Assembly: GCA_964391315.1 (NCBI GenBank)
Contig: CAYMJR010000001.1
Location: 69,949-133,948, forward strand
Origin: an uncultured Gammaproteobacteria bacterium
Lineage (GTDB): Bacteria; Patescibacteriota; Microgenomatia; Levybacterales; UBA12049
DNA: 64,000 bases
Direction of reading: 5' to 3'
Shown: positions 1-57,919 of the stretch, piece by piece
How the letters are laid out: each line of letters opens with the position of its first letter
How positions within the stretch are numbered: the stretch's first letter is position 1
The notes under the pieces: model-generated
What the model was told of the DNA's origin: nothing
What the model saw: the letters and a program-made list of their open reading frames with translations, nothing else
Database searches by the model: none
Made by a program: the position numbers and the translations under genes

Positions 1-440
1 TTAACCCACTCGTGCCATGATATCCATCTGAGTGCAGCAACTTCTTCTGAATTTGGTCTTGGTGTTTGATCGGAAAAACCAACCATCACCGGACAAATTT
101 CATTTTCAACAATTCTGTCTTTTTCAGCTCGGTATCGGTAATCAGGAAGTGCCATTTCAATTTTTACATTTTCTAAACCCAATTCAAATTTCAGGCGTCT
201 TCTTGCTGCGGAAATCGGTCTCTCCCACAACTCAGGATGCCCACAAACAGAATTTGTCCAGACACCAGGCCAAGTCTTTTTATTAAATGACCGTTGCTGC
301 AGCAGTAATTCATTGTTACTGTTAAACAAAAATAATGAAAATGCACGATGTAGCGGCGTCTTGTCTGAATGAGCTGCAAGCTTTTCCATTGTTCCCAGGA
401 CTTTATTTTTATCCGTAACTAATACAACATAATCTTTCAT
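1..440 (-). CDS. idi: Isopentenyl-diphosphate delta-isomerase type 1 (N-terminal 146 codons; 3' end runs off window start)
   Basis: Absent from ORF track because no stop lies in the window. My translation from ATG at 440 gives MKDYVVLVTDKNKVLGTMEKLAAHSDKTPLHRAFSLFLFNSNNELLLQQRSFNKKTWPGVWTNSVCGHP..., with IDI-1 motifs HRAFS and WPGVWTNS.CGHP. Start lies 1 nt after the mvaD stop. Confidence 0.85.
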   Translation of the reverse strand, partial: MKDYVVLVTDKNKVLGTMEKLAAHSDKTPLHRAFSLFLFNSNNELLLQQRSFNKKTWPGVWTNSVCGHPELWERPISAARRRLKFELGLENVKIEMALPDYRYRAEKDRIVENEICPVMVGFSDQTPRPNSEEVAALRWISWHEWV

Positions 441-3616: not shown

Positions 3617-4761
3617 AGTTTTTTCAAAATATGTATCGCTGCAACGGCGCCGCTTCCTCCGACATTATGTGTTAATCCAATCTTTGCATTTTTTACTTGT
3701 CTTTTTCCTGCAGTTCCCCGCAATTGTTCAACGATTTCAACAACTTGTTTGATTCCTGTTGCTCCAACTGGATGACCACAGGCTTTAAGTCCGCCAGAAG
3801 TATTTGTCACAACACTTTTACTGCCAAGAGTCATTTTCCCATCTGCAATATCTTTCGCACCATTGCCTCTTTTGGAGAATCCCAAATCTTCATTTGCTAT
3901 AACTTCTGCTATCGAAAAACAGTCATGAATTTCTGCCACGTCAATATCTGCTGGTGTAATATTTGCTTTTTTATATGCTCTTTTTGAAGCACTTACCACA
4001 GCACCAAGTGTTGTAAATGAATCACGATCAGAAAGCGCCAACGTATCTGTTCCCACTTCACTTGCAATAAAGGAAACTCTTTTTTGTTTTGCTTTTGGCT
4101 GTTCACTTGAAATGATAATTGCCGATGCTCCATCTGAAACTGGTGAACATTCAAGAAGTCTTAATGGATCTGCAATCTTAGTGCTTTTCAAAATTGTTTC
4201 AAGAGGAATTGCTTTTTGAAATTGCGCTTTTGGATTAAGACTTCCATGATAATGATTTTTTACTGATACGTGAGCGAGTAATTCTTCTGAAATATTGTAT
4301 TGCTCTATATATGATTGCGCCATCAGTGCATAAATTCCAGGAAATGTTGCACCTGATAAACGTTCTTCATCTGATCCTGCTGCCATAAGTCCTGAAGTAA
4401 TTTCATCAGGCTGACAATCAGTCATTTTTTCAACACCTAATACCATCACATTTGTATATTGTCCGGCAAGAACACTGTTGATTGCTGCGTGTAATGCCAA
4501 TCCTCCTGATGCACATGCTCCTTCGATATGAAATGCTGGAATATGGGTCCCCAATTCTTCAGCAAAAAATGATCCTAAATTTGCCTGATTGCCCAAAAGA
4601 TCAGCAAGCATATTCCCAACAAACAATGCATCTATTTGTTTTGCTGTTTTTTTTGCATCCGAAAGTGCGCCGATCATCGCTTCTCGCGCAAGAGCCCGAG
4701 GAGATAATTTCCATAATTCACCAAATTGTGTTGTTGCAATTCCTAAAACTGAAATATTCAT
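3613..4761 (-). CDS. Acetyl-CoA acetyltransferase (thiolase), archaeal-type
   Basis: 382 aa. Active-site context EGACASGG, plus C-terminal GLKACGHPVGATG and NVGGSG thiolase motifs. Confidence 0.85.
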   Translation of the reverse strand: MNISVLGIATTQFGELWKLSPRALAREAMIGALSDAKKTAKQIDALFVGNMLADLLGNQANLGSFFAEELGTHIPAFHIEGACASGGLALHAAINSVLAGQYTNVMVLGVEKMTDCQPDEITSGLMAAGSDEERLSGATFPGIYALMAQSYIEQYNISEELLAHVSVKNHYHGSLNPKAQFQKAIPLETILKSTKIADPLRLLECSPVSDGASAIIISSEQPKAKQKRVSFIASEVGTDTLALSDRDSFTTLGAVVSASKRAYKKANITPADIDVAEIHDCFSIAEVIANEDLGFSKRGNGAKDIADGKMTLGSKSVVTNTSGGLKACGHPVGATGIKQVVEIVEQLRGTAGKRQVKNAKIGLTHNVGGSGAVAAIHILKKL

Positions 4762-5798
4762 CCTATTGTATGTGTTTGTTTCAAATATTGTGCATAAGAT
4801 ATATATACTTTCTTTTCAATTTGCTCTGCAACTGAAATTACTTTCTTTTGTTTTTTTGTAATATGTGGTGTCGTTTCAAAAATAAATCCATCAGAACCTG
4901 CACCTGAACCGTAGGATACAAAAAAGATTTTTTGTTTAGGTTTTGCAATATCCAAAACAGCAGCAAGACCTAACAATGATGATGCAGTATAGGGATTGCC
5001 TACTTTTTCAACAGTAAGAGAGGGCGCTAACTGCTCGGGAGTAAAACCCAATTTCTGTGCAGTAACCCGCGGAAATTTACCATTTGGCATATGAAATACA
5101 CAATAATCAAAATCTGAAGGATTCATCCGGCTTTGTTTCAACAGTTTTTTTCCTGCAGACAACACGTGTGTAAAATATGCAGGTTCTCCGGTAAATCGTC
5201 CAAAATGTGAAGGATACCGAGCTCCTTCCCGTCTCCAAAAATCCGGAGTATCAGAAGTAAATGATGTCATTGCACGAATATTTGCAATAATTTCTGTTTT
5301 TTTATTTCCTAAAATATATGCTGTTGCTACACTTGATGCTGTATATTCAAGTGCATCATGGGGCTTTCCCTGTGCGGTATCACTGCCAATTGCCAATCCA
5401 TAGGAAACCTTTTTGCTTTCTAAAAGTCCCGACAATGCCTGCATGCCAGCAGTCGCTGCTTTACAGGCAAATTCCAAATCAGCAGCAAAATAATCGTTAC
5501 CTACTCCCAAAAATTCTGCAACTGTTGATGATGAAGGATTAACAGAATATGGATGACTTTCTGATCCAAAATACACGCCGCCAATTTTTTCAGGAAGAAC
5601 ATTTGCCATTACCAACGCCTTTTTGCCCGCCTCAATTGCAAGCGTTACCGCATCTTCATCAATTCCAGGAACAGCTTTTTCCATCACTTTAAATCCTCCT
5701 ATAATTTCTTCAGGAACTTTTTTCCATACATCGGCAATATCCGAAAGTTTAATCCGATATTGTGGAATATATGTACCGTAGCCTGTTATACCAACCAT
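4758..5798 (-). CDS. Hydroxymethylglutaryl-CoA synthase
   Basis: 346 aa. GITGYGTYIPQYRI start, FACKAATAG catalytic Cys context, and HMPNGKF and SYGSGAGSD motifs of the archaeal/bacterial HMGCS family. Confidence 0.85.
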   Translation of the reverse strand: MVGITGYGTYIPQYRIKLSDIADVWKKVPEEIIGGFKVMEKAVPGIDEDAVTLAIEAGKKALVMANVLPEKIGGVYFGSESHPYSVNPSSSTVAEFLGVGNDYFAADLEFACKAATAGMQALSGLLESKKVSYGLAIGSDTAQGKPHDALEYTASSVATAYILGNKKTEIIANIRAMTSFTSDTPDFWRREGARYPSHFGRFTGEPAYFTHVLSAGKKLLKQSRMNPSDFDYCVFHMPNGKFPRVTAQKLGFTPEQLAPSLTVEKVGNPYTASSLLGLAAVLDIAKPKQKIFFVSYGSGAGSDGFIFETTPHITKKQKKVISVAEQIEKKVYISYAQYLKQTHTIG

Positions 5799-6946
5799 TA
5801 CTTCTTTCCCCTTCCTAATGTTTCATGAGCATGTGCCAAACTTCCTTCACTCAGACTTGCCAACAAAGATAATTCTCCTGCTAAAACTGCTCCTGCAATA
5901 ATTTCAGCAAATTTCTCAACTTTTCCTTTTCCCGTAACACCAAGTATCTCCAACGCTTCTTTTTGTGTTGCCAATCCTGTCCCTCCTCCTACTGTCCCGA
6001 TCATCAACGCGGGCAGATAAATGGAAAAATATAAATCTCCGTTTGGCAAAACTTTTGCAGTTGTTATTCCACAACTTGCCTCTACAACATGCGCAGGATC
6101 TTGGCCTGTTGCAAGGAAAAGAGCTGCAATTACATTTGCAAAATGCGCATTAAATCCAAGCGACCCGCTCATCGCAGATCCAATCATACATTTGGCAAGC
6201 CAGACATCAAATATCTTTTCAGGAGTTGTCTTGAGAATATTTTTTATTATTTCTTTTTTTACAATAATCTCTGCCCATGCAGTAAATCCTCGGCGAGAAA
6301 TAACGTTTAACCATGCAGGTTTTTTATCAATATCAAAGTTTCCTGCAACAGCAAGACACTTTGCTCCTGTTTTTTGTTCAATGAGTTCTGACATTTTTTG
6401 CGTTGCAATTGTCACCATATTCATTCCCATTGCATCCTCGGTATCAAAAGAAAAACGGATAAACACATAATCCGCAAGCATTTGTACTGATATTTTTTTG
6501 CATTGCAAATGTTTTGATGTCGACGCTGCTGTTTTTTGCAGCAACGATTCATTTTTTACAATCCATGTTTGCAACGCTTTGCTTTTTTCCAAAGATCCTG
6601 TATAAAATACCGGCCCCCGTGTTGTTCCTTCCCGATAAACCGCAACTATTGCTCCACCAGATTCTGCAATCACCTTACATCCCCTATTAATAGATGCAAT
6701 TAATGCTCCCTCTGTCGTTGCTAATGGCACAAAAACACTTTCAACTTTAGAATTTAGACTTTTAACTTTCAGCGGTCCCGCAACACCAAGTGGTATTTGT
6801 GTGGCTCCAATCATATTTTCGCAATGTTTCTTTGACGCGATTTCTTCATCTAATGAAAAATTACCAATGTGTGAAACAGCAATTCCTAACTCTTTTTCCA
6901 AAGATTTTCTTCTTTCTTTTGCTGATGATAAATCTCTTAAATTCAT
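5798..6946 (-). CDS. HMG-CoA reductase, class I
   Basis: 382 aa. Motifs CENMIGATQIPLGVAGPL, TTEGALIAS, DAMGMNMV and IGTVGGGT. TAATG overlap with the HMGCS start. Confidence 0.9.
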   Translation of the reverse strand: MNLRDLSSAKERRKSLEKELGIAVSHIGNFSLDEEIASKKHCENMIGATQIPLGVAGPLKVKSLNSKVESVFVPLATTEGALIASINRGCKVIAESGGAIVAVYREGTTRGPVFYTGSLEKSKALQTWIVKNESLLQKTAASTSKHLQCKKISVQMLADYVFIRFSFDTEDAMGMNMVTIATQKMSELIEQKTGAKCLAVAGNFDIDKKPAWLNVISRRGFTAWAEIIVKKEIIKNILKTTPEKIFDVWLAKCMIGSAMSGSLGFNAHFANVIAALFLATGQDPAHVVEASCGITTAKVLPNGDLYFSIYLPALMIGTVGGGTGLATQKEALEILGVTGKGKVEKFAEIIAGAVLAGELSLLASLSEGSLAHAHETLGRGKK

Positions 6947-43143: not shown

Positions 43144-43172
43144 TTGACAAGCATTCGCCACTCACGTAAGCT
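43144..43172 (+). promoter_or_regulatory. Promoter TTGACA-N17-TAAGCT, ATG 7 nt after the -10
   Basis: -35 at 43144-43149, -10 at 43167-43172, ATG at 43180. Confidence 0.5.
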
Positions 43173-43179
43173 AAAATTA

Positions 43180-44820
<1,641 letters not shown>

Positions 44821-44840
44821 AGTAAGATAGATAATAAGAT

Positions 44841-46439
44841 ATGAAAAAATATTCTTCTGCTAAAGGGTTAATGATCTTTATAGGAATGATCGTAGTATTC
44901 CTTTTTCTCCCGTCGCTTAGTATTAAGCAGAACACCTGTTATGCACAGGTCGGTGTGGGTGCATCATGTAATGCAGGTGGATATCCAGGCGTTTGTCATA
45001 CCAGGCCTAGTTACTCTTGTCCAACCTATTTTGACTCAGGAAATTATTGTCCTGGAGCCGCCAATGTCCAATGTTGTGTGAATAGTACGGTAAGCTGCGG
45101 TACTCCCTGGGGATCAGGAACGTGTCGCAATAACTATATGGCGTGTAATGGCACATACCACTCGGGATATTGTCCGGGTCCTTCTGATGTCCAATGTTGT
45201 GTTCCCAACCCACCAACCCCAACCCCGGTACCGGCTACCCCAACCCCTGCCACTTGTGTCAATGACCCAGATCTTACAGGCACAAATAGAATCATCTCCA
45301 CCGGTGTCGCAGTGAGTGCATCCGGAGTCTACAACAACGATACAGCCACTTACGGCCCTCAAAATATTGTTGATGGTGTTCTCGACCGCAATAAAATCTG
45401 GGATGCAGGAGGATTTCCGACACAATGGGTGGAATTTGATCTTGGAGCACCACAAGCTGTCGCTGGCATGAAACTTTATGTCAACCAGTCACCAAATGGA
45501 GGAACAACCCATCAAATTTATGGCGGTCCAAACCCAAATCCAACGACACTTCTTCGTACAATCAGCTGTGGTACAAATGATGGTGATGTGCTTACGGTCG
45601 ATTTTACTAACGCTAAAAATATTCGTTACATTAGAGTTACAACAACGGCAAGTCCGTCATGGGTAGCATGGAGTGAAATCACCATCTTTGGAACGTCACC
45701 CGGATCAGAAACAAAAACACCAGGGATTATCTTTTCAGGTGATGGATCGGCATCCTTTGGTCAGGGCCATGCTTCAACCACAAATTGGGTAGTGGGCGGA
45801 CTTTCCTCCTATTCTGAAGTATTCAATACCGTTACCAACAAATCTTTTACTAATTATCAAAATATTCTTGACCGCGTGCAAACCGGACAAATTCCAATCA
45901 CTGACATATCGACAATCTGTACGCTTACCAACTGTAGTCTGCCAGCTAACTTACCCAATGGTGTCTATCAAGCAAAGGGAAATCTCAATCTTAATGGTTA
46001 CACCTTCCCCGACAACAAAAATTATGTCTTTTTGATAAATGGGGACTTTACTATTCTTGGAAACATTGTTGTTCCGAATGGATCAACAGCCTTCTTTACA
46101 AGCAGCAATGACATTACAGTCGATACCAATGTTGGAACTGCAACCAATCTTTTTCCATTACCAGCAGGACAATTGGATGGCATCTATAGTGCAGATGCCA
46201 ACTTCAGAATCAACGGCATAAATAACTGTACCGTTGCAAAAGATAAAATGCTCAATGTCGAAGGTGCCATTGTGACTAACGCTGTTGGTAACGGCGGCAC
46301 ATTCAGAATACAACGGGATTTATGCGGCGACAATCTCCGCTATCCTGCATTTACTATACGCGCACGACTCGACATGTTGTTAAATATGCCTGAAGTTCTT
46401 ATGCAACAATCAACAACCCTAAAAGAAGATGCTCCCTAG
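44841..46439 (+). CDS. Secreted protein: two N-terminal 6-Cys modules, PT linker, F5/8 type C (discoidin)-like domain, beta-rich C-terminal domain
   Basis: 532 aa with a signal peptide. CNAGGYPGVCHTRPSYSCPTYFDSGNYCPGAANVQCC plus CGTPWGSGTCRNNYMACNGTYHSGYCPGPSDVQCC. NIVDGVLDRNKIWDAGGFPTQWVEFDLG...IRYIRVTTTASPSWVAWSEITIFG fits a discoidin domain. Confidence 0.7.
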   Translation: MKKYSSAKGLMIFIGMIVVFLFLPSLSIKQNTCYAQVGVGASCNAGGYPGVCHTRPSYSCPTYFDSGNYCPGAANVQCCVNSTVSCGTPWGSGTCRNNYMACNGTYHSGYCPGPSDVQCCVPNPPTPTPVPATPTPATCVNDPDLTGTNRIISTGVAVSASGVYNNDTATYGPQNIVDGVLDRNKIWDAGGFPTQWVEFDLGAPQAVAGMKLYVNQSPNGGTTHQIYGGPNPNPTTLLRTISCGTNDGDVLTVDFTNAKNIRYIRVTTTASPSWVAWSEITIFGTSPGSETKTPGIIFSGDGSASFGQGHASTTNWVVGGLSSYSEVFNTVTNKSFTNYQNILDRVQTGQIPITDISTICTLTNCSLPANLPNGVYQAKGNLNLNGYTFPDNKNYVFLINGDFTILGNIVVPNGSTAFFTSSNDITVDTNVGTATNLFPLPAGQLDGIYSADANFRINGINNCTVAKDKMLNVEGAIVTNAVGNGGTFRIQRDLCGDNLRYPAFTIRARLDMLLNMPEVLMQQSTTLKEDAP

Positions 46440-46487
46440 CTACTAACCCTTGACTCTTCACTCTATTCCTGAGTAAACTAAGAGTGT

Positions 46488-47699
46488 ATGAACCTTTCAA
46501 ACAGGATCAAAATCGTATTATCTCTGTTACTGATTCTTTTTATTAGTATTCCTATCACACTTTCCCTTATTCAAAAACAGCAAAATTCACATAGTAACGC
46601 ATCAGCAGGCACTACCCTTTCGCTCATTCCCGAACCTGGACCATCAAGCGATATTACAAAAACAGTTGGAGATACTGTTCCCATCGATATAAAAGTCGAT
46701 CCAGGATCAAACCTTGTAACAATCCTTCGTTTACAGGCACACTATGACCCCACCATACTTCAAGTGGATACGACCAACCCCTTCACACCCACCACCAAAT
46801 TTTCAATAACGCTCCAACCTGTTATCAATAATGGTACCGTCTCACTCATTATTACGACAGGTGGTTCTCCAAGTGATGCTATCCAATCGATAACGACAGC
46901 TGGGACTTTCCATTTTAAAGCAATTGGTGCAACAAGCGACTCACCGTCCGTTGTGTCGTTTACGTCGCAAACACAAGCATTTTCTGCAGGTTCCAATGAC
47001 ACCGCTCGGGATAATGTCCTCAGCAGCACAAATCCTGCTAACATCACAATCAGTACTGCCAGCGCTACTCCTACCCTTGTAACTCCTACAACGTCAAATA
47101 CCCAGCTGTCCTTTACCATTCTTCTCCATGGTATTGGAGCAGCTGGTGATACACCAAATCCCACAGCAAATGACTTAAGTAATAAAAACCCCAAGCGTCC
47201 TGAAAGGCAAGTAACAGCCTCTGTCTATGATTCCCACGACCAATTGGTAACCAGCGGTACCGGTACAATTACCTACGTAAGGACAAACGATAACGCCGAT
47301 GCTATTGGTACCTTTCAAGGATTAGTTACTCTTGGTGCTCCACTTGCCAATGGGAAATATACAGTAAAAGTCAAATCTGACGGCTATTTACGTAAATCTT
47401 TTCCCGGTACTATTACAATCGTTGGTAACCAGGTCAACGTTCTTCCTCCAATTGCTTTGGTTGCTGGTGATACTGACGGAGATAATGCGCTTACTATTCT
47501 TGATTATAATGCGCTTTTGGACTGCGGATATGGCTCCCTCAATCCACTTCCGCTCACCAACTTAAGTTCAGACTATAACTCATCTACTTGCAAAACACAT
47601 GAGCCAAGAAGTAATATTGATCTTAACGATGATGGATTTGTAAATGCGTATGACTATAACTTATTTATTCGAGAACTCTCAGTACAGAGCGGAGATTAA
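46488..47699 (+). CDS. Secreted protein with cohesin-like N-domain, beta-sandwich middle domain and C-terminal dockerin
   Basis: 403 aa with a signal/anchor. VGDTVPIDIKVDPGSNLVTILRLQAHYDPTILQV is cohesin-like. C-terminal GDTDGDNALTILDYNALL and DLNDDGFVNAYDYNLFIREL are two EF-hand-like dockerin repeats. Confidence 0.65.
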   Translation: MNLSNRIKIVLSLLLILFISIPITLSLIQKQQNSHSNASAGTTLSLIPEPGPSSDITKTVGDTVPIDIKVDPGSNLVTILRLQAHYDPTILQVDTTNPFTPTTKFSITLQPVINNGTVSLIITTGGSPSDAIQSITTAGTFHFKAIGATSDSPSVVSFTSQTQAFSAGSNDTARDNVLSSTNPANITISTASATPTLVTPTTSNTQLSFTILLHGIGAAGDTPNPTANDLSNKNPKRPERQVTASVYDSHDQLVTSGTGTITYVRTNDNADAIGTFQGLVTLGAPLANGKYTVKVKSDGYLRKSFPGTITIVGNQVNVLPPIALVAGDTDGDNALTILDYNALLDCGYGSLNPLPLTNLSSDYNSSTCKTHEPRSNIDLNDDGFVNAYDYNLFIRELSVQSGD

Positions 47700-47702
47700 C
47701 AC

Positions 47703-48989
47703 ATGATAAAAAAACTTTTGCTTATTGGGTTACTCATTGTTGCATGTGTTGGTCTTCCCATTACAATCTATCTTTTTCAGCATGCTCAAGATACAAGAAG
47801 TCATGCATCTGCAGGGACAACCCTTTCTCTCATACCTGGAGCTGGTCCATCAAATAGTACTCAAAAAAACGTAGGAGATAATATTCCAATCAATCTTATT
47901 GTCAATCCTGGCCCAAATCAGGTAGGCATTCTTAAAATACAAATTGTTTATGACCCAACCAAGATTCAACCTGATTCGAATAATCCTTTCACTGTAGTTT
48001 CTACTGTTCCACCGCCTTTACATGATCCTGTCATCGATAACAACAATGGCACTATTTCTTTCACTATTTCTGTTGGAACAGATATTAGTAAAGCAATACA
48101 GACTCAAGAGACAATAGGGACATATAATTTCAAAACCGTTGGGGCAACCAACGGTTCTCCCACTCTTGTTTCCTTTACCAACCAAACAGCAGTTCTCTCT
48201 ATCGGACCAAATGATCAAACCTCAGAAAATGTTCTCAGCAACACAACTCCTGCACAAATTACTATTCTTCCTGTAGTTCCAACACCAACTGATACACCAA
48301 CACCTACAGAGACACCGGTAACACCAACCAATACACCAACACCAACTAATACGCCAACTCCTAGACCAACTCGCACACCAACACCGATACCAACCAATAC
48401 ACCAACACCAACCAATACACCAACGCCTGCCCCACTTACTGCAAACGAATTTGCCCTTACTGTATTTTTGCACAACATTGGTAACAGCGGTGACAACACC
48501 AATCCTACTGCTTTCAGTCTCAGTAATAAAAAACCACTCCATCAGCCACGTGATTTCACTGTTTCAATCTACAACGCAGATACTGCAAAACTTATTATGA
48601 GTAAAACAGATAGTCTCGACTTCTCAAGCAATTCAGGTAATTATTCTGGAATATTTTCACTTGGACTAAGCCTTTTGGAAGGTGATTACATTATCAAGGT
48701 CAAAACAAATGATTTTCTCCAAAAAAGAGTCCCAGGGTTTTTCCATATCACACCAGCAACAGAAATTACACTTCCTGAAATTACCCTTATTGCAGGCGAT
48801 TCCAATGGAGATAATGTACTCAATATTCTTGATTACAATATGCTTACTGATTGCTACAGCGATTTCTTGCCACCAACAAATTGTGATGCTACTAAGAAGG
48901 ACGCAACCGACCTTAATGATGATGGAAATGTCGATATTTCCGATATTAACCTCTTCCTGCGTGAGCTCAAGGTCCAGAGCGGCGACTAA
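47703..48989 (+). CDS. Paralog: cohesin-like domain, long TPTP linker, beta-sandwich domain, dockerin
   Basis: 428 aa. Starts 3 nt after the previous stop. VGDNIPINLIVNPGPNQVGILKIQIVYDPTKIQP. Linker (TNTPTP)n at about 48279-48432. GDSNGDNVLNILDYNML and DLNDDGNVDISDINLFLREL. Ends VQSGD like the paralog. Confidence 0.65.
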   Translation: MIKKLLLIGLLIVACVGLPITIYLFQHAQDTRSHASAGTTLSLIPGAGPSNSTQKNVGDNIPINLIVNPGPNQVGILKIQIVYDPTKIQPDSNNPFTVVSTVPPPLHDPVIDNNNGTISFTISVGTDISKAIQTQETIGTYNFKTVGATNGSPTLVSFTNQTAVLSIGPNDQTSENVLSNTTPAQITILPVVPTPTDTPTPTETPVTPTNTPTPTNTPTPRPTRTPTPIPTNTPTPTNTPTPAPLTANEFALTVFLHNIGNSGDNTNPTAFSLSNKKPLHQPRDFTVSIYNADTAKLIMSKTDSLDFSSNSGNYSGIFSLGLSLLEGDYIIKVKTNDFLQKRVPGFFHITPATEITLPEITLIAGDSNGDNVLNILDYNMLTDCYSDFLPPTNCDATKKDATDLNDDGNVDISDINLFLRELKVQSGD

Positions 48990-48997
48990 AACAACGT

Positions 48998-49585
48998 ATG
49001 GCCAAAACAATTCTTACCTTTTTGATAATCTTCTCATTTCTCGTAGCAGGCATTGGATATATTGTGATCCTTTTCCAGGATAACAATACATCCTTTTCCC
49101 TACCCTTCCAGAATACTCCGACTCCAACCCCTGCCCCTATTACCTCGTTGACTCTGATACCCGAAACAGCAAGTGTTCTCCCACAACAAACAAATACCGT
49201 TGACGTTGTTTTTGACTCATCAAATAATACAAGCTACAAACCGAAAATAATTCAAATGGAAATTGGCTATGATCCGATGGCTCTTGAAAATGTCGCTATC
49301 GCACCTGGTGATTTCTTTCCTGATCCTTCTGTGGCACTTAATATCATTGATTTCAAAACCGGAAGAATATCCTATGCACTGCAAACAGCAAAGGTAAATC
49401 AAAAAACAAAAGGGATTGTTGCACGGCTTAGCTTTATACCCAATCCTACTTTTTCTGGGATCCAAACTGCTCTCTCATTTCTTGGCAAAACCATGATTCG
49501 AGGAATGGCAAATGAAAATATTCTTACAGCAACCTATGGAACGCAACTGCAGTTTGCTACTCCAAGTGCAACGCCAAAATTCTAA
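48998..49585 (+). CDS. Membrane-anchored cohesin-like protein (no dockerin)
   Basis: 195 aa. N-terminal TM segment LTFLIIFSFLVAGIGYIVILF, TPTPTPAP linker, then SLTLIPETASV...IIQMEIGYDPMALENVAIAPGDFF, which is cohesin-like. Confidence 0.55.
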   Translation: MAKTILTFLIIFSFLVAGIGYIVILFQDNNTSFSLPFQNTPTPTPAPITSLTLIPETASVLPQQTNTVDVVFDSSNNTSYKPKIIQMEIGYDPMALENVAIAPGDFFPDPSVALNIIDFKTGRISYALQTAKVNQKTKGIVARLSFIPNPTFSGIQTALSFLGKTMIRGMANENILTATYGTQLQFATPSATPKF

Positions 49586-49604: not shown

Positions 49605-50456
49605 CTATTTTTTGAAGAGGAAGTTTGGATTGGCAAACGGAACGTGCATGCGAGACAAAAGAGGTTTTCGGACAATATGCTTCACATAAGTCACGTCAGG
49701 GTTACTTCCACTAAATGTCACATCAAAAATTGGAAGACCAGCTGCTAAATTTTGAAGTGTTGCCTCAAGCTGCAAATCAGCTTCCCGGCGCATATCTTCA
49801 AAAGTAACTCCTTCGATATTCATTGTTTTGACCAGCTGCTGCATAAACGCATGGTCCCGATCAATATCATAGACAAAATACATTTGATGCCGTTTTGGAT
49901 TATCTGCAAGCACTGTATATTTGTCACTATGCACAATCAAAACTCCCCGCTCCTCGTGCTTGCCAGCAAGATTTACCATCTCGATATTTGAATTTACTTC
50001 ACAGAGATTACGGGCATAATGCACAATTTCTTTGATATCGCCGCTTCGTACATCATATTCCCATGAAAGCCCTTTTCGTCCTGCCTTTGCAAGATGCCCA
50101 CAGCCGATGAGTCCATGATTAGCATGAGGTGTAGGATCTGTGTGTTCGTCTGTGTGAAGATAAAATTTCTTGTTTAGTTGGTTTACTGCTTTGAAGACTG
50201 CATTAAAACATTCTGTTGGTGTCAATCCAAGATTTTTATTACGACTGACTGCTTCAAGTGCCATCACATAACCGCAGTCAGCACCGGCTCGTGCGATCAT
50301 TCCATGGCCTTGATTCGGAAGATAACGGCCATCAACGCATTTAGTACCTTTTTGTACTTCAATAATACTTGCTTTAACGTAGTTGATGACTTCTTCTATT
50401 TCAAAGGTGGCGGGAGATTTTGAATTTTTATAGAGTGATTGAAAAATATTGCCCAT
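49605..50456 (-). CDS. Hypothetical protein with beta-carbonic-anhydrase-like CxDxR motif
   Basis: ATG at 50456 is preceded by GGGAGGAT, so the track start at 50522 is rejected. Motifs KCVDGRY, GMIARAGAD and GLIGCGHLAKAG. Confidence 0.5.
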   Translation of the reverse strand: MGNIFQSLYKNSKSPATFEIEEVINYVKASIIEVQKGTKCVDGRYLPNQGHGMIARAGADCGYVMALEAVSRNKNLGLTPTECFNAVFKAVNQLNKKFYLHTDEHTDPTPHANHGLIGCGHLAKAGRKGLSWEYDVRSGDIKEIVHYARNLCEVNSNIEMVNLAGKHEERGVLIVHSDKYTVLADNPKRHQMYFVYDIDRDHAFMQQLVKTMNIEGVTFEDMRREADLQLEATLQNLAAGLPIFDVTFSGSNPDVTYVKHIVRKPLLSRMHVPFANPNFLFKK

Positions 50457-50541
50457 ACGTATATCCTCCCAGGGTCTAGACCACAGTATTATAGTAACAC
50501 ATCTTCCAAAATGCAACAACAACCTGACAAATAGCTGATAC

Positions 50542-50570
50542 TTGACATTGATTTTATTACAGGATAATAT
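50542..50570 (+). promoter_or_regulatory. Promoter TTGACA-N17-TAATAT
   Basis: -35 at 50542-50547, -10 at 50565-50570, ATG at 50588 (17 nt later). No SD sequence. Confidence 0.55.
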
Positions 50571-50587
50571 ACATTTTTATCAAAATT

Positions 50588-51865
50588 ATGGGCATGTCTC
50601 CAGATCGAAGACAATTGAGTTTTGGTACACAACCTACTAACGAACGAGTCTCTATTCCTGAACAGCGTAGAAGACCAAAAGAAGTAGTACATTCTGCTGA
50701 AGCTTATCTCGCAGACAACAGATCTCCTGAAGCAAGGGAAAGATTAGCTAAACATCATGAACACAAAATGCATGGAACTCTTGTATATGTAGCAGGCTGC
50801 GGTGATGCGCGTGCAGAGGAAGAAATGGCAGAGCAGACATTAGTGGATAGGCGTATTGCTGCTGCCGTATTACCTGAGAAAGCACAACAGCCGCTTGCAG
50901 ATCCTTCGGTAATGTTTGGCACCGTTAGTATTCACTTTGCGGGAAGTAAGACACGACAAGGAGAAAGACTACGAGGTTGTGGTGGTCAAGACGCAGTTGA
51001 AGAATTATCTCATATAGATGGTCCACCAGCTATTGATCCTCTATTCCAATATGCAGGACGTATAGCCCATGCCGATCCAACGATTCATGGCCTTAAATTA
51101 GCACGAAGACTTGCGAGAACTTCCGATGTCGGTAAACTCGTTGCATTGACAACACATGATCATGAAACGGGTGAAAGAAGAGCAATTGGTTACTCTCAAC
51201 GTAAGGGGAAAATTATGATGGATGTCACTCCTGCAGATTTCCATATGCCTCTTGATGGACAATATGACCCAAAACTTATTTATTCAAATGGTCTTCCCAG
51301 TCTTGATATGGACAGCTTACCTGGCAACGTCCAAGAATTTTTAGTGAGATACCAAGAAAAATTGGCAACACAACCCGTGATTGCTGAAGACCAAGCGACG
51401 CAAGATCCCGGCGCTATCATGTTTACCACAGAACTACGGGATAGTAAACTTTGGTTACCTGATACATATGCAAAACGTAACTCTGGTTTTAGGTTGACTC
51501 TTTACCAAAGTCCAAATAGAGTTGTTTCTCCTGATGATCAAGATGTTGCATTAGCACAAGCACGATATGTATTTCGTCAAAGTGTAGATAATGCCCATCT
51601 TCCAGGTACACCTTTTCACTCTACAAGTACTGCAGCAGTACTTACTGATCAATATGATTTTTCAAGACAATTTGCTGCAAGATTAGTACAGTCTGTACAA
51701 GACTTAAGTAGAACTGATGGTAAACCATCCTGGTTTGAATTCCCAAATAGAAAGATAATCGTGGGAGAAGTTCATAATGGAAATATACATAGAATAGGTG
51801 AAATAACTGTAGGAGTAAAAGGTGGGGTTGTTAATAAATTTGAAGAACGAGAACTTCGAATTTAG
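50588..51865 (+). CDS. Hypothetical protein, N-terminal beta-carbonic-anhydrase-like region plus unknown C-terminal domain
   Basis: 425 aa. Motifs VAGCGDARA, LVDRRIAAA, RGCGGQDA and LTTHDHETGERR, in the order of the beta-CA motifs CxDxR / RxAG / CGG / YDxxTG. The canonical HxxC is absent. Confidence 0.5.
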   Translation: MGMSPDRRQLSFGTQPTNERVSIPEQRRRPKEVVHSAEAYLADNRSPEARERLAKHHEHKMHGTLVYVAGCGDARAEEEMAEQTLVDRRIAAAVLPEKAQQPLADPSVMFGTVSIHFAGSKTRQGERLRGCGGQDAVEELSHIDGPPAIDPLFQYAGRIAHADPTIHGLKLARRLARTSDVGKLVALTTHDHETGERRAIGYSQRKGKIMMDVTPADFHMPLDGQYDPKLIYSNGLPSLDMDSLPGNVQEFLVRYQEKLATQPVIAEDQATQDPGAIMFTTELRDSKLWLPDTYAKRNSGFRLTLYQSPNRVVSPDDQDVALAQARYVFRQSVDNAHLPGTPFHSTSTAAVLTDQYDFSRQFAARLVQSVQDLSRTDGKPSWFEFPNRKIIVGEVHNGNIHRIGEITVGVKGGVVNKFEERELRI

Positions 51866-51915: not shown

Positions 51916-52482
51916 ATGGACAAGATGAATTTTATCTCTATGAAAGGCTCTTTTATTGGTATCTTTATCACACTTATCTTAATCCTTACCATTCCTGTAC
52001 TTTTTCTTCTCTCACAGGAAAATAAGTTACTGGGAAGCAAACAACCCAATCCTACCCCGACCCCTATCAAGATGACCTTTGCTAATGGAGAAGGCATTAT
52101 CGAAGGCTATGTCTATCATGATACCAACCGCGATGGCAAACGTGAGGCGGAAGAAAAACCATTCTCCGATGTAAAAATGGAAATGAAAATTCTTACGGAA
52201 GACAATTCCAAACAACAAACACTTGATGCAACAACAGACACATATGGCTACTTTAGCTTCCATTTCCCAAGCAATAGCAAGGATTCATACATGATAAAAC
52301 TTGTCCTGCCTCAAAATTATCAAACGGTTGATACTAATCCTGTTATTGTCTCAGATATGCAACCCAATACGCAGAAAATTGTGGAATTTGGATTAGCGCT
52401 TTCCGGAGATATTACGCCATCGCCTACTAACAAACCTACAACCAAACAGATAGGTGAAACATCACCTACTCCTTCTCAATAA
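51916..52482 (+). CDS. Secreted SdrD-B/Cna-B-like domain protein
   Basis: 188 aa with a signal/anchor. IEGYVYHDTNRDGKREAEEKPFSDVKMEM...TDTYGYFSFHFP...YMIKLVLPQNY. PT-rich tail. An extended -10 (TGCTATACT) lies 10 nt before the ATG. Confidence 0.65.
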   Translation: MDKMNFISMKGSFIGIFITLILILTIPVLFLLSQENKLLGSKQPNPTPTPIKMTFANGEGIIEGYVYHDTNRDGKREAEEKPFSDVKMEMKILTEDNSKQQTLDATTDTYGYFSFHFPSNSKDSYMIKLVLPQNYQTVDTNPVIVSDMQPNTQKIVEFGLALSGDITPSPTNKPTTKQIGETSPTPSQ

Positions 52483-52751
52483 TCATTTGTTTCTTCCTTT
52501 TTATCTCCCCATCTCCAAGTTGTTGGCTCGCCTTTTAGATACGCAATAATCAAAATAATCGCAGATAGAATTAAAAACCGCGGAGCAAAATTGATTAGTC
52601 TATAGCTGACTGAATGCGACTGACTGGCAATTTGAATAAACGAGTAAATCAAGCCTCCTAGATACAGAAGAAGCACGAGCCATCCTTGCCAGGTGTTTGG
52701 AGACCACCCATAGCCATAACGATGCGCTTTAAACCAATAGTGCTGTGCCAT
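52476..52751 (-). CDS. Small membrane protein
   Basis: ATG at 52751 (MAQHYWFKAHRYGYGWSPNTWQGW...). Two TM segments. Confidence 0.5.
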   Translation of the reverse strand: MAQHYWFKAHRYGYGWSPNTWQGWLVLLLYLGGLIYSFIQIASQSHSVSYRLINFAPRFLILSAIILIIAYLKGEPTTWRWGDKKEETNDY

Positions 52752-52775
52752 ACATCCAGTATACCAACTCACCTA

Positions 52776-53778: not shown

Positions 53779-53885
53779 AATTTTATGGTAGCATATCTTT
53801 ATTTTTGCTCTACTATCTACTACATAAGACATGTTCAATTTTTGGAAGTAAAGTGGAGTTCTTGAGTAGAATAAGTAATAATTAG

Positions 53886-53958
53886 TGGGCATCCATGGAG
53901 TCGAACCATGCGCCTCTTTCTTATCAGGAAAGCGTTCTAGCCGATGAACTAGATGCCC
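53886..53958 (-). tRNA. tRNA-Ile (anticodon GAU)
   Basis: 73 nt: GGGCATC-TA-GTTC-ATCGGCTA-GAAC-G-CTTTC-CTGATAA-GAAAG-AGGCG-CATGG-TTCGACT-CCATG-GATGCCC-A. All stems pair. CCA is not encoded. Confidence 0.9.
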
Positions 53959-54385: not shown

Positions 54386-54389
54386 AGTG

Positions 54390-54462
54390 AGGCGCGAAGG
54401 GGAGTTGCACCCCTGAATGGCTGTTCTGCAGACAGCTGTGTTAGCTACTTCACCACCGCGCC
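54390..54462 (-). tRNA. tRNA-Cys (anticodon GCA)
   Basis: 73 nt: GGCGCGG-TG-GTGA-AGTAGCTA-ACAC-A-GCTGT-CTGCAGA-ACAGC-CATTC-AGGGG-TGCAACT-CCCCT-TCGCGCC-T. U73 discriminator and A13/A22 mismatch as in bacterial tRNA-Cys. T loop is unusual (G at position 55). Confidence 0.75.
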
Positions 54463-54869: not shown

Positions 54870-55665
54870 ATCGCAGTAAGAACTATTCTGCTCCCCACTG
54901 GACGTGCGGATTTCCCGCATCCAGCGAGTCTCTTATAAAATCCTCTTTGAGAAGTCTAATCTTCCCAATGCCATCGGAAGTAAGATGCTGTTTGTTTAAC
55001 ATTAATTCTGCTACTTTACAAAATAATGCAAAACTAAATTTTTTCTTTGCTTGTAAAGGATACTTCTGAAAAAAAGGTATAACTTTTGTTGTGATATCTT
55101 TTAAGTTTGAGACTTTATATTTACAATGGGGTCTCCACTTTTTATATCTCTCATAGTTGAGGTAATAAATATTACCACAACTAAGCGTTTCTTTTACTCT
55201 TTCCAGAATTTCCTTATCATCTTCTCGTAATTCAATTTCAAAGATGAGTCTTACTTCAAGCAAACGATTATTGTTATGGTTGTTAAAAGTAATACTAAAA
55301 CAACCTTCACCATCTACTAAACCGACTAAATAATAAGGATTTAATTTTGAGTTCATCCCTTCTCCTAATATTATTATACATAATACTAAGATACTATGGA
55401 ATTTGCTGACTTCCTCTAGCCTATTATTGTTCTGACGCATAGAGGATCTCCTTGGGTCACGCAAAAAACAATTTCAAACATCCTAAAAAGCTTTTTCAGG
55501 GCTCTTCCTCTTAGTACACATAAGAGTCGAGCTGCTTTGTAATTTTAGGCTACTCTTCGTTACATCGAACCCTTCAGACTTTCTCTTACGAGCTAAGTCC
55601 TGTTCTTCAACTACATGAGTGGATTTTCACCACTTTGTTTTTTACGCTGCCAAGCGCATTTAATT
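54870..55665 (-). mobile_element. 796-nt insertion in 16S between TGTACA and CACCGCCCGTC (about E. coli 1396/1397), carrying a LAGLIDADG gene
   Basis: Flanking exon sequences rejoin to the universal TGTACACACCGCCCGTC. The insert starts AAUUAAAUGCG and ends CUUACUGCGAU. Confidence 0.8.
54883..55356 (-). CDS. LAGLIDADG homing endonuclease (single-motif, about 157 aa)
   Basis: ATG at 55356 is preceded by AGGAGAAGGG. MNSKLNPYYLVGLVDGEGCFSI carries the LAGLIDADG motif. Lies entirely inside the insertion. Confidence 0.85.
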   Translation of the reverse strand: MNSKLNPYYLVGLVDGEGCFSITFNNHNNNRLLEVRLIFEIELREDDKEILERVKETLSCGNIYYLNYERYKKWRPHCKYKVSNLKDITTKVIPFFQKYPLQAKKKFSFALFCKVAELMLNKQHLTSDGIGKIRLLKEDFIRDSLDAGNPHVQWGAE

Positions 55666-55981
55666 TGTACAAGACCCGAGAACGTATTCACCGCGGCCTT
55701 CTGATCCGCGATTACTACTGATTCCGACTTCATGGAGTCGGGTTGCAGACTCCAATCTGAACTGAGGCGAAATTTCTGAGATTAGCTTGCCGTCACCGGC
55801 TTGCAGCTCATTGTTCTTCGCCATTGTAGGGTGTGTGTTACCCAAGGTATAAGGGACGTGCTGACTTGACGTCTTCCGCTCCTTCCTTCCCAGTAAAACT
55901 GGGACCGTTTCTAATGAATATGTAACATTAGACACGGGTTGCGCTCGTTTCCCCACTTAAGGGAACACCTCCGAATCGTTT

Positions 55982-56796
55982 GATAATACAAACGAACTTA
56001 GACTATACCTTTATCCTCTCATTGAGTAGGATACTGACGTGTTATGGAACATTATATGAATAATTTTCCATCTCTGCTGTTATGCAGAAGTCGTTACGGG
56101 GTCAAAAATTTTATACTGAAATGTTGAAAGAATATATGGTCTTATTAACGAAAAGAAAGTTTCAATACTTTTTTTCTTAATTAATAATTTTGAATCATTT
56201 TTGAAAGAGCATTTTATATCAAACTCATCTTCAAGTCTCTTCTGAAGAAATAAAATATCTTCTCTTGAAAATCCATCAGTAGCAATAATACATTTATGGT
56301 CACTAAAACAACCATCATCCATGTACCAAATTGCTAAAACTAATGGTGTAAGTTGAATATCTTTGGGAATAATCTTTTTGTTGTCGAAATAGAATTTCTC
56401 TCTCCAAGATGAAAAATATTGACGAGTCCAAAACCGATAAGAAGTATATGTTTGAGAAAAACGTTTATCAAAACGTTCAACTTTCGATACATTCTTATAT
56501 GAAATTGAACCTAATTCTTGGTGTTTCCAAAAAAGATATTCTTTCTGATTACTACTCTGTTCAAATTGAATCTGACCTCTTTTTGTTATATATGCATCGC
56601 CAAGAAGTGAACCTATTAAGATTTCTTCTTGATGATTTGTTACAAAAAGTTTTTGATTCTTTCGAGCTCTCAGTTGCATAAAACTTCGACTTCCCTCGGT
56701 ATTACAACAGTATACCAAAATACACTTTTGCTTCACCGATATGAGTCAGTTATACATCCCGATATTACTATCGGGAGCCGCGAGACATTTTTGTTC
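55982..56796 (-). mobile_element. 815-nt insertion in 16S (about E. coli 1078/1079), group-I-intron-like boundaries, carrying a LAGLIDADG gene
   Basis: The 5' exon ends ...CGUGCCGU, with U at -1. The insert ends ...AACGAUUCG, with a terminal G. The spliced product has the same length as E. coli across CGUGUUGUGAAAUGUUGGG. GNRA hairpin CCCGAUA-GUAA-UAUCGGG near the 5' end. Confidence 0.75.
56080..56736 (-). CDS. LAGLIDADG homing endonuclease (double-motif)
   Basis: Motifs ILIGSLLGDAYI and LAIWYMDDGCF. The track start is a GTG at 56736; an alternative ATG lies at 56679. Lies entirely inside the insertion. Confidence 0.85.
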   Translation of the reverse strand: MKQKCILVYCCNTEGSRSFMQLRARKNQKLFVTNHQEEILIGSLLGDAYITKRGQIQFEQSSNQKEYLFWKHQELGSISYKNVSKVERFDKRFSQTYTSYRFWTRQYFSSWREKFYFDNKKIIPKDIQLTPLVLAIWYMDDGCFSDHKCIIATDGFSREDILFLQKRLEDEFDIKCSFKNDSKLLIKKKSIETFFSLIRPYILSTFQYKIFDPVTTSA

Positions 56797-56940
56797 ACGG
56801 CACGAGCTGACGACAGCCATGCATCACCTGTGTTACCATCCTTGCGGATTGCCCCTTATTTCTAAAGGGCTGTACGGTAGCATGTCAAACCTTGGTAAGG
56901 TGTTTCGCTTCGTCTCGAATTAAACCACACGCTCCACCAG

Positions 56941-57000
<60 letters not shown>

Positions 57001-57919
57001 TCCGCTTAATGCGTTAGCTTGGACCCCTGCAAGCAAGCTTGCAAGAGCCAGCGGACATCGTTTACGGCTAGGACTACACAGGTATCTAATCTGTTTCGCT
57101 ACCCTAGCTTTCGTGCCTCAGCGTCAGGAAAAGTACAGAAGCTTGCCTTCGCCCTTGGTGTTCCAGTTAATATCAACGCATTTCACTGCTACACTAACTG
57201 TTCCAGCTTCCCAACCAATCCTCAATTCCATGAGTATCCTCGCCACTCCCAAGGGTAAGCCTTGGTCTTTAAGCAAAGACTTTATGGAACGCCTACGCAC
57301 ACTTTACGCCCAATGAATCCGGATAATGCTTGCTCCCTACGTATTACCGAGACTTCTGGCACGTAGTTAGTAGGAGCTTATTCTCCAAGCTGTGAACGGC
57401 TTGGTAAAAGGAGTTTACAACCCGAAGGCCTTCATCCTCCACGCGGCGTCGCTGCGTCAGACTTTCGTCCATTGCGCAATATTCCCAGTTGCTGCCATCC
57501 GTAGATGTACTGCCCGTGTCTCAGTGCAGTTGTGGCTGATCGACCTCTCAGTCCAGCTACCCGTCATTGCCTTGGTGGGCCTTTACCCCGCCAACTAGCT
57601 GATAGGACGCAGGCTCCCCCCTTGGCGGTCCGTTAAGACCTTTACTCTTACGAGAACTATGGAGAATTACCCCCTCTTTCGAGGGGCTATGCTCCACCTA
57701 GGGATAGATTCCTACGCGTTACTCACCCGTCTGCCGCTGACTTGTATTGCTACTCATCCGCTCGACTTGCATGCTTAAGGCACGCCGCCAGCATTCATCC
57801 TGAACCAGGATCAAATTCTCAAAAAAATTTGAGAGGTACCATCGCTGTGATGATACTTCTGATTTCGGATTTTTTTTATTCTGATTGCTCAGAGTTAAAT
57901 AGGTAAACCCGAAAAAATT

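Follow-up and report, generated by a model that had tools for sequence, protein, structure and literature searches.

We consider it probable that two genes, Z and T, which lie back to back in a 64,000-nucleotide stretch of contig CAYMJR010000001.1 (the window), encode cytoplasmic metalloproteins of the β/ζ carbonic anhydrase (CA) structural group and are members of a recurrent two-gene module. The source is an ultra-small bacterium of the candidate phyla radiation (CPR). T is predicted to adopt a β-CA fold, the predicted fold of Z matches only the ζ-class enzyme CDCA1, the candidate Cys/His/Cys ligands and Asp-Arg dyads are conserved among homologs, and T is almost always accompanied by a second CA-like gene. 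A preliminary description, drawn from the sequence alone, had presented Z and T as an orphan pair with degenerate β-CA-like motifs. Neither is an orphan: the Z family comprises at least 220 database clusters at E<=1e-3, and an exhaustive profile search for T at the same threshold recovered 189 cluster representatives (140 at E<=1e-10), mostly of 370-430 amino acids and matched over their full length. A word-indexed search returned only two relatives of T.

Conservation and predicted fold of T

Conservation in T was evaluated over 119 sequences with 20-54% identity. Residues C71, H116 and C131 are conserved in 100% of them, D73 in 99%, R75 and G132 in 97%, and G133 in 95%. The CxDxR signature of β-CAs is thus present (C71/D73/R75). 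The HxxC(G) signature is not, because H116 precedes C131 by 15 residues, with the Cys-Gly retained. All conserved Cys and His residues fall between positions 71 and 192, including H192 (93%) of the late strand DH192xTG in lobe 1, and none occurs in lobe 2; only one domain keeps metal ligands. The stretch LVDRRIAAA, previously proposed as a motif, is present at residues 85-93 with I90 and A91 conserved, whereas its Arg residues are not.

The AlphaFold2 (AF2) model of T (pLDDT 93.2, pTM 0.90) has as its best Foldseek match 1ddz_A, a tandem-repeat β-CA (E 5.7e-8, 508 columns, query-normalised TM-score, TMq, 0.47), followed by Can2, Nce103, the H. influenzae enzyme and LCIB with TMq values of only 0.20-0.25. 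The match to 1ddz and those to 2w3n, 6gwu, 9s4g and 3e3g (probability 0.75-1.0 for these four) support a predicted β-CA fold. As the TMq approximately doubles against the tandem 1ddz relative to single-domain β-CAs, and as the two halves share their order of helices and strands, the additional ~220 residues, formerly regarded as a domain of no recognized kind, are most likely a second, ligand-less and degenerate β-CA-like lobe. An origin of T by recognisable internal duplication was considered and rejected, since no sequence signal links the halves. Lobe 2 has a conserved set of its own, comprising Q272 (89%), P274 (95%), F301 (96%), Q324 (94%), Y327 (93%) and F343 (100%), as well as W382. The Q272-N-P motif lies nine residues ahead of the position equivalent to the lost Cys, an offset equal to that between Gln151 and Cys160 of pea β-CA. 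Gln151 of the pea enzyme is a transition-state residue (PMC13144422).

At the sequence level, five of the eight sub-threshold matches of the T profile in the PDB are β-CAs (E 0.28-1.7), covering profile positions 47-118, the segment from CxDxR to the His. A check against Pfam Pro_CA (PF00484), which the preliminary description had recommended, gave no match at E<=10 for either window protein, and two of the 119 T relatives match (best E 4.2e-4). Alignment of T lobe 1 with Pro_CA_2 (PF20393) by hhalign gave a probability of 43% and E 2.4e-4, with CxDxR and the His in register; neither T nor Z matches the Pro_CA_2 profile. Pfam scans for PF08936 and PF10070 gave no match for Z, T or the T relatives. 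The signals from CDCA (described below for Z), Pro_CA, Pro_CA_2 and the PDB sequence searches agree, each being weak when taken alone.

Conservation and predicted fold of Z

Members of the Z family are found in Patescibacteria, are all annotated as hypothetical, and have 250-310 amino acids and no Pfam domain. The gene was located in 25 loci of species-representative genomes, labelled mostly Levyibacteriota or Patescibacteria. Some contigs carry labels of other phyla; three of these (L016, L021 and L024) retain the cohesin-like neighbour beside Z that is described below, which suggests mis-binned contigs. In one locus (L033, 7983..9531, plus strand) two Z-family genes stand in tandem 47 nt apart, an arrangement that recalls the CDCA1 repeats, but as separate genes.

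Alignments of 107 and 24 sequences show that C40, D42, G43, R44, Y45, H101, D103, G118, C119, H121, H167, E169, Y196, R200 and Q229 are invariant, even with members of 36-40% identity included. Z therefore has the CxDxR signature (C40/D42/R44) and, like T, the Cys-Gly but not the HxxC spacing, the distance from H101 to C119 being 18 residues. H101 rather than H113 is the candidate ligand, since H113 varies among relatives, as does the length of the loop from H101 to C119. The proposal that the His is displaced to 14-20 residues before the Cys thus holds for both proteins, and the candidate ligands, C71/H116/C131 in T and C40/H101/C119 in Z, are conserved in the homologs as anticipated. Conservation across homologs, of 20-54% identity for T and down to 36-40% for Z, shows that the resemblance in the core motif residues goes beyond chance, contrary to the caution first attached to it.

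Searching the PDB with the AF2 model of Z (pLDDT 88.8, pTM 0.86), Foldseek returned six CDCA1 chains with E 6.6e-6 to 2.7e-4. The structural alignments have target-normalised TM-scores of 0.59-0.63 over ~228 columns at 16-20% identity. Beyond CDCA1 no PDB match had an E below 0.24, and β-CAs were absent among the hits below E 0.2. The model thus has the two-lobe fold of CDCA as predicted from these chains. In sequence, 20 of the 107 Z relatives touch the Pfam CDCA family, the cadmium carbonic anhydrase repeat, below threshold (best E 0.0037); the member from L036 scores 17.2 bits, its residues 35-203 aligning with profile positions 11-148 of 184. Window Z itself gave no match to CDCA (PF18484, gathering score 29.2 bits).

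The expectation that both proteins adopt the β-CA fold is accordingly borne out for T and not for Z, whose fold match is to ζ-class CDCA1 only. The broader proposal of divergent metalloenzymes with a degenerate β-CA-type site retains the residue pattern and its conservation in both proteins and the fold in T, Z being ζ-like instead. A relationship between Z and T, the lack of which the preliminary description had named as refuting its hypothesis, was rejected at the level of sequence and profile (BLASTP E 0.13, hhalign probability 2.6%). The possibility that Z is an enlarged Pro_CA_2 was rejected as well, as hhalign aligns a 9-residue CxDGR stretch alone.

Recurrent pairing of T with a second CA-like gene

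Open reading frames (ORFs) in 58 loci were labelled with hidden Markov models (HMMs) for T, Z and Pro_CA_2. A second CA-like gene adjoins T directly in 15 of the 16 non-redundant T loci. In 12 of them the neighbour is Pro_CA_2 (L005/006, L007/008, L009/010/040, L041, L042/043, L044/045, L046, L047, L048, L050/051, L055 and L057/058), divergently oriented in all but one. These Pro_CA_2 genes encode 120-160 amino acids and are confirmed by Pfam with E down to 7e-33. Z adjoins T in three loci, divergently in the window and in L016, and in L039 with T directly upstream of Z on the same strand. The sole T locus with neither gene beside T is L056. Pro_CA_2 also occurs directly upstream of Z (L015 and L017). 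At the Z/T locus of the window there is no Pro_CA_2 gene and Z fills its place. T thus almost always has a CA-like companion, and the window represents a partner swap in which Z replaces Pro_CA_2. No carboxysome gene or PF00361 (DabB) gene lies next to T in any locus.

Two further arrangements of these genes were observed. In one lineage (L009/L010, 550..10039) the Pro_CA_2/T pair is inserted, together with a NUDIX gene, between the ATP synthase β and ε genes. In L014 a 546-residue protein (4300..5940, plus strand) lies between an SdrD_B gene and Z, in the slot held elsewhere by T or Pro_CA_2, and contains the motifs LCMDRR (CxDxR), SHHGCA (HxxC) and SFDPTTG. It was rejected as a relative of T, because 13 columns align and Pfam, PDB and hhalign give no support; as a motif-level lead, it may represent another CA-like family.

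Locus organization

Both ORFs, the seven motifs and the spacer with its Shine-Dalgarno (SD) sequence and promoter were all located as first described (Table 1). The mechanical ORF of Z reaches back to a TTG at 50522, whereas the ATG is the start in homologs and in public gene calls; the boundaries of both genes are the same in gene calls on identical public contigs. The composition of the Z/T stretch is ordinary (GC 0.39-0.45, like the flanks). Neither protein has a signal peptide or a long hydrophobic stretch, and Z has no transmembrane (TM) segment; judged from these sequence features, both are therefore probably cytoplasmic.

Table 1 Features of the Z/T locus, in window coordinates unless residues are given.
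Feature	Position	Strand	Basis or remark
Cohesin-like ORF, 195 aa	48998..49585	+	Pfam Cohesin E 3.4e-4; last of surface-protein cluster, convergent with Z
Gene Z	49605..50456	-	283 aa, counted from ATG at 50456
Z quoted motifs	residues 39-45, 52-60, 116-126	-	all three located
Z C119-G120-H121, putative second Cys ligand	50094..50102	-	invariance and model; N-terminus of helix 120-125
Z H101, proposed His ligand	50154..50156	-	invariant; end of strand 98-103, strand from model
Z C40-V-D42-G-R44, CxDxR (putative first metal ligand and Asp-Arg dyad)	50325..50339	-	invariant
Divergent intergenic spacer, 131 nt	50457..50587	.	between Z and T
SD GGGAGGA of Z	50464..50470	-	7 nt before ATG
T promoter TTGACA-N17-TAATAT	TTGACA 50542-50547, TAATAT 50565-50570	+	best promoter-like site of region, 10/12 matches
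Gene T	50588..51865	+	425 aa
T quoted motifs	residues 68-76, 85-93, 129-136, 187-198	+	all four located
T lobe 1 (~residues 36-215), predicted catalytic β-CA-like domain	50693..51232	+	conservation, hhalign, sub-threshold PDB matches
T C71-G-D73-A-R75	50798..50812	+	conserved CxDxR
T H116	50933..50935	+	conserved His
T C131-G-G	50978..50986	+	conserved Cys-Gly-Gly
T lobe 2 (~residues 240-425)	51305..51862	+	helix/strand order as in lobe 1; no Cys/His ligands
SdrD_B-domain ORF, 188 aa, flanking T	51916..52482	+	Pfam SdrD_B E 3.1e-9
98-aa ORF	52476..52772	-	homologs by phmmer E 3.6e-32; two hydrophobic stretches taken by eye for TM helices

The common spacer suggests co-regulation of Z and T. 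A perfect 8-nt inverted repeat, TGCCCATA / TATGGGCA, spans both start codons (50450..50457 / 50587..50594), and both genes open with ATGGGCA. The string AAAATGCAACAACA is common to the window spacer and the Z-T spacer of L016 (1880..1990), in too few sequences for its significance to be judged; a shared regulatory motif across the divergent spacers was rejected, four sequences being too few.

Surroundings of the CA-like genes

The cohesin-like ORF closes a cluster that encodes surface proteins of the dockerin, VWA, SdrD_B and discoidin types. Z and a homolog of this ORF are convergent neighbours in 17 related loci (18 with the window). In most loci Z lies at the 3' edge of such a cohesin/dockerin-like surface-protein cluster, and in L007, L048, L050 and L058 Pro_CA_2 takes this edge position. 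As a CA-like gene recurs at the cluster edge across loci, the location inside the surface island, first described as unexplained, represents conserved synteny and not an accident. The SdrD_B neighbour of T is likewise present in L014 to L017.

The 98-residue ORF beyond it has no Pfam match and shows the sequence pattern YWFKA..GYGW..W.GW. In at least 12 other loci (L012, L020 to L025, L027, L029 to L032; phmmer down to E 1e-49) the gene immediately upstream of Z, in the same orientation, encodes a 90-residue homolog. This ORF could be functionally linked to Z.

In the window the secreted or surface-type cluster spans 43144..49585 on the plus strand, with F5/8 type C and cohesin-like proteins; SdrD_B and VWA proteins are found in relatives. 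The order of the cluster genes is kept across Levyibacteriota-type contigs, with Z or Pro_CA_2 at the 3' edge. Paralogous surface proteins of L005 share the C-terminal sequence '...NLFIRELSVQSGL', and a 428-residue ORF of the window ends in the similar '...NLFLRELKVQSGD'. Two loci place Z in other company. In L013 (1..6834) it stands last, with 30 nt between it and the preceding Proton_antipo_M, NADHdh and Complex1_30/49kDa genes, and in L011 (3847..6849) it comes after DUF4112 and a Na+/H+ exchanger; both contexts are single cases and recall energy-coupled CA-like systems (DAB, NDH-1/Cup). Farther along the window, part of a bacterial 16S rRNA (model positions 9-873) is matched at 56996..57818, within the minus-strand region 54883..57818. 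Close downstream of this match are two LAGLIDADG-type ORFs (54883..55464 and 56080..56736), which indicates that the 16S gene is split by endonuclease-bearing insertions. Genes for tRNA-Ile (53885..53958) and tRNA-Cys (54389..54462) are nearby.

Proposed function and alternative explanations

From the predicted folds, the conserved residues and the pairing we infer that Z and T are catalytic. Each would be a single chain that imitates a β-CA dimer. In T, lobe 1 would carry the ligands C71/H116/C131 and the D73-R75 dyad, and lobe 2, its ligands lost, would probably contribute Q272, F301, Q324, Y327 and F343 to close off the lobe 1 substrate pocket. Z would be a two-lobe domain resembling ζ-CA (CDCA1), in which C40/H101/C119 serve as ligands and D42-R44 as the dyad. 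In each protein, Cys/His/Cys may coordinate a single divalent metal, most likely zinc, with water or hydroxide as the fourth ligand. The Asp-Arg dyad would orient the metal-bound hydroxide for attack on CO2, with bicarbonate as the product; carbonyl sulfide (COS) or carbon disulfide (CS2) are possible alternative substrates. T and a smaller CA-like partner, usually Pro_CA_2 and here Z, would constitute the two-gene module of Patescibacteria. The recurrent pairing suggests that T and its partner cooperate, either in a complex or by acting on successive or alternative substrates.

Several observations weigh against this proposal. Searches of window Z and T against Pfam and NCBIfam gave no match even at E<=10, and neither single sequences nor the family profiles of the two proteins found a significant match among PDB sequences. 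The two lobes of T have no sequence similarity by hhalign (probability 0.1%). The putative correspondence of the Cys/His/Cys residues to those of CDCA1 and β-CAs is drawn from residue order and invariance. Z has further invariant polar residues (D60, D103, H121, H167, E169, D197 and R200) beyond those required for simple CA catalysis; these could reflect a different chemistry or a second site. Most Z loci lack T and Pro_CA_2 within the flank, so that Z appears independent of a partner, and no bicarbonate-using enzyme is adjacent. Finally, DabA2, whose ligand set is identical, shows no spontaneous CO2 hydration (PMC13144422); an intact site is therefore no guarantee of free CA activity.

An unlikely alternative keeps the same folds and metal sites and assigns them substrates other than CO2, the pair hydrolysing COS/CS2 (CS2 to COS to CO2 and H2S) or cyanate-derived species in successive steps. 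CDCA1, which alone matches Z in structure, also acts as a CS2 hydrolase, and an archaeal CS2 hydrolase has a β-CA fold and active site without CA activity (PMC8217695). The near-obligate pairing of different CA-like genes also fits two steps better than redundancy. However, no sulfur-metabolism gene is adjacent, the partner varies between Pro_CA_2 and Z, and many Z genes stand alone; the sequences do not discriminate between substrates.

It is quite improbable that T, and perhaps Z, is instead a gated or regulatory CA-like subunit activated by a partner, as DabA is by DabB, for energy-coupled or sensed conversion of CO2 and bicarbonate. Candidate partners would be Pro_CA_2, Z, the 90-98-residue ORF or the complex-I-like modules. 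The near-constant CA-like neighbour of T agrees with such a role, as do the positions of Z after Proton_antipo_M/NADHdh/Complex1 genes in L013 and after the Na+/H+ exchanger in L011, and the synteny with Z of a small ORF that by eye resembles a two-helix membrane protein. The membrane-module contexts are, however, single cases; amphipathic and TM insertions are absent from T, and long hydrophobic stretches are absent from both proteins. There is also no Pfam match to DabA or DabB and no PF00361 gene in the window region, and the Gln of T lobe 2 is conserved, whereas DabA2 has lost its transition-state Gln.

That the CA-like motifs are coincidental or vestigial, in proteins unrelated to CA chemistry such as accessory factors of the cohesin/dockerin surface cluster, would agree with the lack of a significant HMM match of window Z and T to any CA family and with the strong synteny of Z and Pro_CA_2 with the cluster end, but is hardly credible given that the ligand and dyad residues do not vary even in families as divergent as 20-40% identity, that two independent fold matches both lead to CA classes and to nothing else, that the recurrent neighbour belongs to a curated CA-like Pfam family (E down to 7e-33), and that neither protein has a signal peptide.

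The interpretation of Z and T as paired metalloproteins of the β/ζ-CA group is therefore preferred. A more far-reaching version, possible although doubtful, holds that Z is a large unrecognised prokaryotic branch of the ζ-CAs and that T and its partner are a dedicated two-component CO2/COS system of Patescibacteria tied to a cohesin/dockerin-type surface apparatus. In that case the ζ class, so far held to be a diatom invention, would seem to have a bacterial relative or origin, and the T/Z/Pro_CA_2 system might be the only CA function of these reduced genomes. With 220 or more bacterial proteins sharing the ζ fold and its catalytic constellation, the question of how the class arose would become testable. 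The extent to which the β-CA site can drift and yet be conserved would also become apparent, the His being 15-18 residues from the Cys, and the near-obligate pairing of two different CA-like genes provides a lead on complex formation, division of substrates or co-regulation. Literature on CA in Patescibacteria/CPR, on bacterial ζ-CAs and on PF20393 yielded no description of the Z or T families, which, like their pairing, appear to be undescribed. As both families are annotated as hypothetical and missed by all curated HMMs, CA function in Patescibacteria is probably under-counted when their metabolism is reconstructed from genomes.

Comparison with known carbonic anhydrases

Pro_CA_2, a putative carbonic anhydrase family of 120-160 residues, is the usual divergent neighbour of T and is sometimes found upstream of Z. 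It resembles T lobe 1 in the registered CxDxR and His noted above and differs in keeping the canonical HxxC; Z and T are not members.

Over its full length, T is matched best in fold by the tandem β-CA of Porphyridium purpureum (1DDZ). T shares with it and with canonical β-CAs (PF00484) the CxDxR, the Cys-Gly-Gly after the second ligand and the late DHxTG strand. In contrast to these enzymes, T has its ligands in the first half only, with the His 15 residues before the Cys rather than in HxxC; window T has no Pfam match and its halves are dissimilar in sequence.

CsoSCA is a carboxysomal β-CA subclass that is grouped with DabA as single-chain, pseudo-dimeric and β-CA-like. DabA2 of the DAB2 complex (PF10070; PDB 9RD0) has two β-CA-like domains and one zinc, bound by Cys351/His524/Cys539, with an Asp353-Arg355 dyad (PMC13144422). 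The order of these ligand residues is the same in T and Z, and His524 lies 15 residues before Cys539, the same spacing as in T. Unlike CsoSCA and DabA2, T lacks the ~280-residue helical N-terminal domain, the membrane finger and a DabB partner gene, and it has no sequence or Pfam match to them. CsoSCA and DabA were absent from the top 50 Foldseek hits of T, in a PDB copy that may predate 9RD0. T also retains the conserved Gln in lobe 2, in contrast to DabA2, which lost its transition-state Gln (PMC13144422).

The ζ-CA CDCA1 of Thalassiosira weissflogii (PF18484; PDB 3BOB, 3BOH, 3UK8, 7BEZ), the only structural match of Z, is covered over a whole repeat. In CDCA1-R3 the metal ligands are Cys473, His525 and Cys535, the metal-bound water is contacted by Asp475 and Gly536, and the Asp/Arg dyad of β-CAs is conserved (PMC8217695). 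Judged by residue order and invariance, Z has the same succession of CxD(xR), His and Cys-Gly, C119-G120 resembling Cys535-Gly536. A CDCA1 repeat is a two-lobe mimic of the β-CA dimer (PMC4413181), and Z would likewise be a single chain of two lobes that mimics such a dimer. Z differs from CDCA1 in its longer loops (61 versus 52 positions from Cys to His and 18 versus 10 from His to Cys), in its low identity (16-20%) and Pfam scores below the gathering threshold, in its additional invariant H121, H167 and E169, and in having a single domain rather than three repeats. Reviews treat the ζ-CAs as a case of convergent evolution (PMC7215798, PMC4413181), with CDCA1 homologs reported from diatoms only (PMC4413181; PMC7215798 Table 1); Z, by contrast, is bacterial and comes from the Patescibacteria.

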